From the NCBI GenBank assembly GCA_951406725.2, contig OX597826.1, positions 74,462,001 through 74,526,000 on the forward strand: a DNA stretch of 64,000 bases, written 5' to 3'. Source of the stretch: Octopus vulgaris (Eukaryota). The translations under genes and the position numbers were made by a program. The notes under the pieces were generated by a model. That model saw only the letters and a program-made list of their open reading frames with translations. It had not been told where the DNA came from and ran no database searches. This document shows positions 9,137 to 63,789 of this stretch, piece by piece (position 1 is the first letter of the stretch; each line of letters opens with the position of its first letter).

Positions 9137-9286
9137 TCGAAAAATACCTTAGGAATGAGAATCCAGGTTCGAAATTTCCCCAAGACACCTGAAGAAGGCT
9201 GAAGGGTATATCAGCCGAAACGTTGTGTTGACAACAAACAAGATGAGGACAAATATCCGTCGAATGTAAATAATGTAAATAATATA
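8903..9286 (+). mobile_element. tRNA-headed SINE-like unit containing (AAT)n and a hammerhead, flanked by 20-bp direct repeats
   Basis: A box tggcctagtgg (8951), B box agttcgattcc (8995), HHR at 9184-9229, tail (tgtaaataa)x3, and TSD-like aataa(t/c)gtcact(g/a)ttctata at 8883-8902 and 9287-9306. Confidence 0.7.
9184..9229 (+). ncRNA. Minimal type I hammerhead ribozyme motif, core intact
   Basis: gacac-CTGAAGA-a-ggctga-agggtata-tcagcc-GAAAC-GTT-gtgtt; perfect 6-bp stem II and palindromic AACGTT stem III. Confidence 0.75.
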
Positions 9287-41477: not shown

Positions 41478-41988
41478 CGTGCGTGCGTGTGTATACGTAT
41501 GTCTATTTTAGTGAACATGATGGAATACCGTCCGCAACATAGAAATTCATAAGTGGTCCCTCGCTATATTTAGAAAATGTTGACCTTGTCTGCAGTGACC
41601 ATGGAGGGGAATGAGTGCACGTTTATCACGACTTCAAAAATGTCACTTTACCAAGTGAAATTACTCACCAGTTAACGCAGGCAACTCCTTAGCAGATTTA
41701 ATGATCTTAAAATTTACGCTTTTTTGCAAAATTACAATAGCAAATGTGGGTGACCCTACAAGTAGTAGTATCAGAATACCACTATTGTAGCTAAAACACT
41801 TGTGATACCCGTATATCTGCACTGGGTAGGAGTATTATAACGTCAGTCTATTAAAATAGACGTTCATATTTCTCTTCTTAAGAAGGCGGCAGTGTCGGAG
41901 AAAATGTCGGACAAAATGCTTAGCGGTATTTCGTCCGACTTTACATATACATAGATATACACACTCATATTTCAAATTACTATGCTCC

Positions 41989-42311: not shown

Positions 42312-42315
<4 letters not shown>
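42056..42315 (-). mobile_element. PLE-type terminal fragment in (TA)n with atypical hammerhead-like motif (42153-42187)
   Basis: ctt-CTGTGGA-a-gatc-gtag-gctc-GAAAC-GTT-aaag; A6 is substituted. Confidence 0.55.
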
Positions 42316-42365
<50 letters not shown>

Positions 42366-42503
42366 CAGCAAAACAATTAAGATTCAAATGAATTCAAATG
42401 AATATGGTACTTAATTTAGATGCACCAGAATTCTTTAGGGTATTAACCATAAAAATATATGGGGTGATTATAGCCAAGAAGAAAGTAACAACAATGGATC
42501 AGT

Positions 42504-42595
42504 AATTCGGTACAATTGTTTCATACTGAGAACATTTTTATTTGAAGCTGCAAATATTACAGCAAATATAATGTCAAGAATTCATCAGCCAAATC
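42504..42595 (-). ncRNA. Type I hammerhead ribozyme motif, intact core
   Basis: Reverse complement of 42741-42832. Confidence 0.75.
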
Positions 42596-42740
42596 ACATA
42601 TATGTTTTCCAACCATCCTAGAAAGTGTAAATATCCTTATATAAAGTCAGTTTATTACCTTACATCAAAGTCATAGAACTCACTCTGAATGCTTCATAAG
42701 GATATTTACACTTTCTAGGGTGGTTGGAAAACATATATGT

Positions 42741-42832
42741 GATTTGGCTGATGAATTCTTGACATTATATTTGCTGTAATATTTGCAGCTTCAAATAAAA
42801 ATGTTCTCAGTATGAAACAATTGTACCGAATT
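42741..42832 (+). ncRNA. Type I hammerhead ribozyme motif, intact core, extended stem II
   Basis: gatttgg-CTGATGA-(59-nt hairpin)-GAAAC-aatt-GTA-ccgaatt; 7-bp stem I and palindromic ACAATTGT. Confidence 0.75.
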
Positions 42833-43050
42833 ACTGATCCATTGTTGTTACTTTTTTCTTGGCTATATATATATTAAAAAAATTTTTTTTAATTATTAAT
42901 ATAAATTAATAATTTTAAATTTAAATAATTTAAATTTCAAATTTTATATTTTATATATTTTGTAAATTATATAAATTATTTTAATTTTTATGTTTTGGTC
43001 TATGTTTTTCACTGTTTGATTTGCCTAATAGTGGTTTTATCTCTAATTTA

Positions 43051-43092
<42 letters not shown>

Positions 43093-43227
43093 GCACACGC
43101 ATCTCTTTCACTCTCTGTAAATATATATATACGTATATGTGTTTGTGTGTGTATGTGTATGTCTATATTAGTGATTTCCATTGTGTGAACATGATGGAGC
43201 ACCGTCTGCTATATAGAAATCCGTAAG

Positions 43228-43618
43228 TCCATCTTTACGTTCTGAGTTCAAATTCCGCCGATGTTGACTTAGCCTTTTATCCTGTTGGGGTCGATAAGAT
43301 AATTGCCATTTAATCCCTGGGCTCGGTGTAATCGATTAGCACCCCCACCCACCCAAATTTTAGACCCTGTGCTTAAAGCAGCAAGATTTATTACTGTTCT
43401 TAAGGCAGTTAATGGGCAGAATCGTTAGCAAGCCGGATAAAATGCTTAGCAGCATTTTGTCCGTCTTTCCGTTCTGATTTGAAATTTTGCCGAGGTCGAC
43501 TTTGCCTTTCATTCAATCAGAGTCAATAAAACATGTAGCACTTGAGCCCTGGAATTCATGGAATTGACCCACTCCTTCCTCAAAATGTCAGGCCTTGTGT
43601 CGCCTGTAGCAGAAAGGA
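43228..43618 (+). mobile_element. Two adjacent diverged SINE family B copies
   Basis: Two B-box/Meta-like segments. Confidence 0.75.
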
Positions 43619-52800: not shown

Positions 52801-52999
52801 ATCCTTAAATCCTTAAAGATTTTTCGGCCCGAATGCTGTGGCCATGCTGGGGCAGCACCGTTGTAACAAAGTGTAACGCTTACAGCACCTAGGTTTCCCA
52901 AGCGGTCACCCATCTAAGTACTAACTAGACTCGTCGTTGCTGAAATTCGCTGATCGAACGAGAACTGGTGCTTTCAACGTGATGTGGCCGGCCGTAAGC
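52801..52999 (-). mobile_element. 5S rRNA-derived SINE-like element or chimeric 5S retrocopy
   Basis: 52878-52999 on the minus strand is a full-length diverged 5S rRNA (gcttacggcc...ttagtacttagatgggtgaccgcttggga...gctgtaagc), followed by an A-type tail and (ttaaggat)x2. Confidence 0.8.
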
Positions 53000-63195: not shown

Positions 63196-63490
63196 TGCTG
63201 CTGTTGTTGTTGTTGTTGGTCACCTCAAGCGCCTGAGGATAACTCTCAGAAGCGCTAGAGCCGTGGAAGGGAGACGAACCATCTCATCCATTGTAGCCCC
63301 TAGTTGGCGGATATTGCGTTCCACCATCAGGGCCGGGCATCTCAGCCAGAGATGTTCTGCAGATTCCACCTCCTCATTACAGAGTCTGCATTGATCTGTG
63401 TCGCTGCGTCCTGCCATCTTTTGCCACCGCCTGAGTGCCGGATGATGACCACCACTACGGAAGCGTATCATGTCTGTGAAGTCTGCCTTC
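63196..63490 (-). mobile_element. 3' end of an I-group (Ingi/Nimb/R1-like) LINE: C-terminal zinc knuckle and (CAA)n tail
   Basis: RFRSGGHH...CRLCNEEVESAEHLWLRCPAL...LRRLR* followed by caacaacaacaacagcagcag. Confidence 0.75.
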
Positions 63491-63789
63491 GAGAAGGCTG
63501 CTGTTGTTGTTGTTACTGTTGTTATTGTTGAAGATGTTAACTAATTGAATGATTTGAATGACGGTGATTTGGTAGAATTAGTAGGGTGCCCTTCATTGGG
63601 TCTCTTTAGGTTTTTCTAGGTTTCCCTCCTTGTTGAAGTCGCTTTGTCCTTCCTCTCATCAATAAACTAAATACCAGTCATTAGTGGATATCTATGCAAT
63701 GTCTTGTTACTTCTTCTTATGGCCTTTTGGTCGTGGTTACAATCATTCATTAGTCATATGCACGCGCGTGTGCGTGTATCCTCTCTTTA

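Follow-up and report, generated by a model that had tools for sequence, protein, structure and literature searches.

A 64,000-nucleotide stretch of the Octopus vulgaris genome (hereafter the window) contains two nearly identical inverted arms, each of which carries a hammerhead ribozyme motif, and the question raised by this locus is whether the two motifs form a working ribozyme pair or are a by-product of the way in which a mobile element was inserted. The answer that we consider very probable is that the locus is one 5'-truncated insertion of a Hydra-clade Penelope-like element (PLE), in which two hammerhead-bearing ends stand head to head, were likely written in one insertion, and are likely silent as ribozymes at this site.

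The arms, at 42469-42640 and 42696-42867, are 172 nt long, are separated by 55 nt, and differ from each other at exactly 2 sites (42720 and 42855 in right-arm coordinates), which confirms the arm lengths, the approximate mismatch count and the spacing given in a first-pass annotation of the sequence. The bounds proposed there, 42469 to 42867, hold for the arms, but the left bound does not hold for the element, which reaches 42361 by way of a 108-nt tail that is present in other copies of the family. The left arm lies on the minus strand and, when aligned with tail-bearing copies, corresponds to the 3' part of a pLTR, 5'-truncated at 42640; its tail runs on the same strand from 42468 down to 42361, is common to tail-bearing copies, and ends at a position designated site B. 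To the left of the tail lies a 47-nt (TA)n microsatellite (42315-42361), the likely insertion target, family arms ending in TATA and mostly running into (TA)n. The right arm, on the plus strand, is also the 3' part of a pLTR when aligned with family copies, carries no tail, and ends at site A, 42 nt past the predicted hammerhead cut. Because the left arm carries the family tail followed by (TA)n, the whole insertion is taken to be the 507 bp from 42361 to 42867; no target duplication is discernible in the TA target. The 55-bp length assigned to the spacer is correct, but the spacer is itself element sequence: 42641-42695 (+) is the unshared 5' part of the right arm and is collinear with it in family copies, positions 1-227 of a query made up of the spacer and the right arm being matched in most of the listed copies. 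The arms meet at a 2-nt microhomology (42639-42640), scored as an overlap of 2 against the reference copy L033.

The surrounding window is rich in simple repeats, and no host exon was found among the 140 of 255 filtered stop-to-stop frames of at least 55 aa that were scanned with Pfam, in which there were three sub-threshold matches. A sub-threshold zf-RVT match at 63223-63540 (-), with an E value of 2.2e-4, is likely a LINE remnant, and a 5S rRNA-like sequence at 52877-52992 (-), with an Rfam score of 69.1 bits, is either a gene or a 5S-derived repeat. Short, diverged direct repeats flank the element (41511-41554 with 43185-43228, and 41908-41942 with 43434-43468, at 84-86%) and are likely pieces of other common repeats.

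By descriptor scan, each arm has the boxes CTGATGA and GAAA, between which lie 59 nt of stem II, together with the palindrome ACAATTGT and GTA as cleavage triplet. In the right copy, which spans 42739-42834 (+) and is defined by the scan together with the family alignment, the core occupies 42748-42754, stem II 42755-42813, GAAA 42814-42817 and the palindromic stem III 42817-42824, with cleavage predicted after 42825; the left copy is its mirror image at 42597-42502 (-), with cleavage predicted after 42511. Stem I has 7 bp, or up to 9 bp with G-U pairs. The anatomy that had been read from the letters (the 7-bp stem I, the 59-nt stem II and the palindromic stem III) is thus found in each arm, and the predicted cut position after 42825 was likewise correctly read. 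The description of both hammerheads as intact can be kept for the core and not for stem II, whose third pair is U-U (42757/42811; mismatch at 42579 in the left copy) as a result of a substitution at 42757 that is present in both window arms and in 0 of 39 other arms.

The motif belongs to type I, with the core CUGANGA, GAAA, NUH and stems I, II and III, and covariation is found in all three stems. In an alignment of 24 copies, hand-picked across subfamilies, 91.9% of cells are paired and both partners vary in 10 of 21 pairs; the covariation score was reached by 0 of 500 shuffles, a control that ignores relatedness among copies, and slid controls are 31-50% paired. The pair 42757/42811 of the window is the sole unpaired cell at that position of stem II among the 24 aligned rows. 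Stem III is self-complementary throughout, as ACAATTGT, as ACGATCGT or, with G-U pairs, as ACGATTGT. A profile search gave 173 matches, from which 14 partial ones were dropped, and the remaining 159 reduce to 83 distinct strings. The first-pass annotation had made its ribozyme reading depend on conservation of the core across the family, and that conservation is observed: CTGANGA is intact in 78 of the 83 distinct strings and the interval between the boxes is 56-63 nt in 79 of them, both counts being biased upward by a search pattern that required 40-70 nt and few core mismatches. As the isolated 92-nt motif folds no better than shuffles do (z -0.5), the support for the ribozyme fold is comparative, and it indicates that the hammerhead is likely genuine and selected at the level of the family.

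For this locus Rfam returned no hammerhead family at the gathering score, nor any at E values up to 10, where the only structures reported were sub-threshold matches to miRNA hairpins; the long stem II is the likely explanation. An unaided RNAalifold consensus likewise did not return the hammerhead; what it gave was the stem II apical hairpin together with an alternative one that takes in GAAA. This alternative hairpin (alignment columns 77-93) is conserved, covers both GAAA and the cut site, and could, if the folding predictions are followed, lock monomers in an inactive form. In parents with a tandem arrangement, the motif would act as a double hammerhead by means of its palindromic stem III, perhaps with the aid of a protein. 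At four loci (L012:1202-1291, L029:1524-1613, L059:2516-2606 and L116:1366-1454), 12 nt flanked by short direct repeats are missing from the apical hairpin of stem II, a deletion that in L012 and L116 is confined to one arm. Other hammerhead families with an extended stem II (29-55 nt) adjoin copies of the family at L061:7731-8143, L082:67-146, L087:7378-7457 and L076:1430-1501, and one of them again forms a head-to-head pair.

The identity of the parent element must be established from related copies, as no tblastn match to RT or GIY-YIG coding sequence lies inside the window. The 227-nt query has at least 43 matches at 89-100% in the 2.8-Gb genome, a lower bound on copy number since 40 of 1438 first-look candidates were scored; oriented copies stop sharply at site A and are then followed either by (TA)n or by the common tail. 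Three sister copies, L031-L033, are 90-94% identical to the window copy over the 227 nt and have upstream of it a GIY-YIG frame whose match to PF01541 (E 2.4e-4) falls slightly short of the curated cut-off; in L033 this frame is preceded by an RT frame, although L033 is split by a mariner-type insertion and its ORF is broken. The RT fragment of L033 has at least 149 matches in the genome, several of which lie in open frames of 940-984 codons, and the window pLTR is matched at 70-90% in 40 of 40 stretches that were chosen by hand across the ranking of these RT matches. In the long relatives the endonuclease is C-terminal to the RT, and in L031-L033 and the longer relatives the pLTR is contiguous with an ORF of this RT plus C-terminal GIY-YIG type, as in EN+ Penelope-like elements, whose layout of direct or inverted pLTRs, 5' truncation and a tail at one end is also that of the family. 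The unit measured between direct pLTR ends is 4.0-4.7 kb (L063, L065, L066 and L074), and in L074 the first ATG lies about 169 nt past the pLTR end, or site A. In the longer relatives the tail corresponds to the opening stretch of the element body (5' UTR), being homologous to the sequence that follows the upstream pLTR in L063, L065, L066, L068, L073 and L074; where pLTRs stand in direct tandem, the body begins with the tail sequence. Some relatives (L072-L077 and L080) have open frames of 970-984 codons, several with pLTR pairs that are 98-99.7% alike, which suggests, as far as sequence can, a recently mobile lineage.

The features diagnostic of the Hydra clade in the portions compared of Craig et al. 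2021 (PMC8557442) are RWK, DKT in place of DKG, CxCX5C, CxxC before a conserved E, CxH after a conserved N, and no CCHH. L074 has an open 957-aa ORF with RWK (in RRIRWK) and DKT (in PADKTG), and its endonuclease and linker contain CKCRIKSKC, CQLC before the E and CVH after the N, with no CCHH. This check was made on a relative with 66% RT identity to L033, which represents the subfamily of the window and is itself broken; L033 retains CRIKSKC and CQLC, with a stop codon at the first position. The clade's insertion into (TA)n is seen in the left flank of the window copy (42315-42361) and in most terminal arms. On the strength of these motifs and a by-eye comparison with Hydra-1_Obim, the window insertion almost certainly belongs to a Hydra-clade PLE; Pfam assigned no RT family to the two long family ORFs searched. 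Membership in Neptune, which a motif had seemed to suggest, was rejected in view of the Hydra diagnostics. Naiad/Chlamys elements have an N-terminal endonuclease and no canonical hammerhead, whereas the endonuclease of this family follows the RT, and a non-LTR retrozyme would be a head-to-tail tandem of non-coding hammerhead units, whereas here there is one head-to-head pair that forms the end of a coding element.

The arrangement of the window arms recurs throughout the family. An opposite-strand partner is found within about 1.5 kb in 15 of 34 distinct short loci, two of which (L013 and L016) have flanks in common and cannot be counted as independent, and 13 of the 15 were resolved, L006 and L008 being left out; all 13 are divergent and have exactly one tail each. 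The arms are mutually non-nested, each containing sequence that is absent from the other, in 6 of the 13, the present locus included, and the junctions show an overlap of 1-6 nt in 7 and a gap of 1-38 nt in 6. Among the 40 RT-selected stretches, a simple inverted pair surrounds the ORF in 11 and inverted pLTRs are combined with direct ones in 2; these 13 long elements have one terminal tail each, which is on the inverted arm in 4. L072, with one arm that stops before site A, departs from this pattern. The suggestion that the inverted repeat is the footprint of a PLE insertion is therefore borne out by head-to-head, one-tail arms in 13 short pairs and 13 long elements. For PLEs, 5'-truncated copies in inverted orientation, with TA targets and a tail on one side, are described in the text compared of PMC8557442, and an inverted pLTR with a one-sided tail is also reported for rotifer PLEs in that of PMC3846280.

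The repeat had also been taken for a young inverted duplication. Arm divergence is 1.2% in the window copy and 0.9-2.9% in the 10 pairs measured, so this copy has no special youth. Both arms likely derive from one insertion rather than from a duplication. Within a pair the arms differ at 1-5 sites, compared to a median of 2-16 sites to outside arms, in 10 of 10 pairs. Sites A and B resemble each other in sequence, each having TATA, then AT and then several C in a row (L065:6350-6564, L090:6360-6575 and other bodies), so base pairing between the TA target and the RNA would be possible at either start site. Two short consensus hairpins are present in the tail, but only 2 of 12 pairs in them show two-sided change, so that the tail structure is suggestive only.

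How a single insertion could produce two inverted arms is best accounted for, in our judgement with reasonable probability, by two separately primed cDNAs. The element endonuclease would cut both strands of the (TA)n target, and each free target end would prime reverse transcription on element RNA; one cDNA would start at site A, the pLTR end 42 nt past the cut site, and the other at site B, 108 nt beyond site A and 150 nt past the cut site, and both would stop early, after 227 and 280 nt, to be joined through the 2-nt microhomology. Since both start sites lie past the hammerhead cut site, the template must, on this mechanism, have been uncleaved. In vitro, according to the portions compared of PMC11167929, another PLE cuts and extends both target strands, its tail spans the interval from one RT start site to the other, and its hammerhead is protein-assisted and dispensable for insertion.

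Other origins of the inverted repeat have to be weighed against this two-primer mechanism. The one that comes closest, although it is unlikely, is that the inverted arm was made from one nucleic acid strand that folded back to prime itself or switched template, as in the self-priming on an antisense template that Arkhipova et al. 2013 propose and through which the text compared interprets the palindromic junctions of rotifer PLEs (PMC3846280). A base that is private to both arms, such as the one at 42757, is what would be expected if one strand templated the other, but a shared private base occurs in only 1 of the 10 pairs, and it would be explained as well by one RNA or donor serving both cDNAs or, equally, by later gene conversion between the arms. 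The geometry of the arms also speaks against fold-back: the tail-less arm extends 55 nt further 5' and the other arm carries the 108-nt tail, so that neither can have been copied from the other; other short pairs show this non-nested relation too, and the junction of the window copy has no palindrome, only the 2-nt overlap. Each arm therefore holds sequence that it does not share, which favours two primed cDNAs.

Near-perfect palindromes can arise as assembly or library artefacts, and this general experience is what speaks for such an origin here; it is nevertheless highly improbable for a repeat whose arms differ at 2 sites, end at sites A and B, and obey the family rule of one tail per pair. 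Still harder to credit is a DNA transposon of the MITE or foldback type, whose terminal inverted repeats would be the 172-bp arms and whose target duplication would be TA; it would account for long inverted repeats that end in TA, a short spacer and the lack of an ORF. A transposon of this kind is a fixed unit, while arm lengths and junctions vary at each resolved locus of the family, 19 of the 34 short loci have no partner within about 1.5 kb, the tail is one-sided, and the sequence is contiguous with PLE RT and GIY-YIG frames.

A broader form of the two-primer account can be put forward tentatively, with a chance that we place slightly below even: twin priming, in which site A always provides one end and site B always the other, would explain both the inverted pLTR and the one-sided tail, the window copy would represent two cDNAs from one RNA, the 59-nt stem II and the tail of about 110 nt, with its two conserved hairpins, would serve to bind protein or to mark start sites, and the family would be a Hydra-clade lineage without a description in the literature compared.

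There remains the question of whether the window copy can act as a ribozyme, and meaningful cleavage in vivo is, on the folding models, improbable at this locus. The first-pass annotation regarded it as the best candidate for activity in the window and supposed that cleavage would compete with hairpin formation. The models argue against such a competition, as the antisense arm is transcribed first on either strand and the full repeat folds at about -290 kcal/mol, a form constrained to contain the hammerhead being about 130 kcal/mol costlier. Opposite-strand motifs cannot dimerize in cis, and even the free motif is predicted to misfold owing to the stem II mismatch shared by the arms: the cost of reaching the hammerhead fold is 4.4 kcal/mol for the window copy compared to 2.0 kcal/mol for the sister copy L004, and two strands of L004, when co-folded without constraint, adopt a double-hammerhead fold, whereas strands of the window copy mispair the core with stem II. 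In homodimer co-folding the probability of the core-closing pair is 0.01 for the window copy, as against 0.72 for L004, 0.33 for L002 and 0.89 for L020, values which, together with the private mismatch, make this copy a poor choice as best candidate in the models. The same pair also has a low probability, 0.00-0.12, in L055, L066, L074 and L078, of which L066, L074 and L078 come from lineages with long open frames; the test is thus not specific, and a low core-closing score does not show inactivity.

An active or switchable ribozyme pair, in which, for example, transcripts initiated in the spacer would free hammerheads that cleave as trans dimers, is therefore to be judged against evidence of both kinds. 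Stem I, stem III and the core show no defect, co-folding gives stem III a trans-pairing probability of 0.99, and the fold covaries in the family. The pair nevertheless seems decidedly improbable, since its stem II mismatch lies directly beside the core and carries the energetic and pairing costs given above, both motifs are hidden in the full repeat, just 98 nt of pLTR lie upstream of the right motif, and the layout is a by-product found across the family; published metazoan PLE hammerheads are, in the portions compared of PMC4209133, weak cleavers even as dimers. Under the preferred reading of a silent insertion, read-through RNA of the locus, if any is transcribed, would form a 172-bp duplex on which A-to-I editing or small-RNA silencing could plausibly act. 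The window contains a second, unrelated hammerhead motif at 9184-9229 (+), with a well-paired 21-nt stem II and an ACGT palindrome, to which a motif at L036:3967-4012 is similar, and it may be a better candidate for activity than the pair at 42469-42867.

The layout and its association with hammerheads are already published: the text compared of PMC8557442 describes for Penelope-13_HM a 5'-truncated inverted copy with a hammerhead on both strands, and that of PMC4209133 records dual hammerheads on opposite strands, 100-700 bp apart, in metazoan PLEs. A literature search that covered few subscription journals and did not extend to Repbase or Dfam found no account of this family and, within the same scope, no PLE paper that joins "pLTR" with "twin priming". 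What appears new relative to the literature compared is the longer Hydra-type family, the 59-nt stem II, a tail about 110 nt long, and the combination of a strict one-tail rule with arms that are not nested, with the qualification that the supplements of PMC11167929 and PMC4209133 may hold long-stem hammerheads or longer tails. The locus itself, a truncated transposon stub, is of little weight, and the interest lies at the level of the family. Published PLE descriptors limit the spacer to 7-17 nt and half-cores to 35-50 nt, in the portions compared of PMC8557442; a stem II of about 59 nt exceeds these descriptor limits, and Rfam did not report the motif, so such motifs are probably undercounted. 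The one-tail-per-pair rule and the non-nested arms are relevant to the unsettled issue of how inverted repeats arise in PLEs.

Comparison with known systems, which draws on portions of the cited papers, places the family closest to the Hydra clade as represented by Hydra-1_Obim and Penelope-13_HM (PMC8557442), with which it shares RWK, DKT, CxCX5C, CxxC, CxH and the lack of CCHH, as well as (TA)n targets and a type I hammerhead near the 3' end. Its units, at 4.0-4.7 kb, are longer than the generally less than 3 kb described for the clade, which is a tendency and not a defining motif; it has a long Asn-rich linker; and 56-63 nt separate its core boxes, compared to about 12-26 nt, judged by eye from File S2, in the clade. 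Its tail, of 108 nt here and about 110 nt in relatives, is also longer than the 30-40 bp that are a typical published size for PLE tails and not a strict criterion. Hydra-1_Obim is taken to be another family because its hammerhead is short and different. The biochemically studied Poseidon_Ac (PAc) of the green anole (Frangieh et al. 2024, PMC11167929) resembles the present family, which is known here from its sequence, in that two fixed end points past the hammerhead cut site define the tail, the targets are AT-rich and the template is likely uncleaved, but it belongs to another clade and its ORF starts inside the hammerhead, whereas the ATG of L074 lies well beyond the pLTR end. The Penelope elements of Adineta vaga (Arkhipova et al. 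2013, PMC3846280) share the head-to-head inverted pLTR, the optional tail on one arm and Asn-rich stretches in the ORF, and differ in having a 31-bp tail, palindromic junctions and target duplications, where the tail of the window copy measures 108 nt, its arms overlap by 2 nt and no duplication is discernible. The minimal metazoan PLE hammerheads with a palindromic helix III (Cervera and de la Pena 2014, PMC4209133) are likewise of type I, with a stem III suited to dimers, but their helix II has 6-8 bp, whereas that of the present family is built of several segments over about 59 nt and has an apical hairpin that is conserved.
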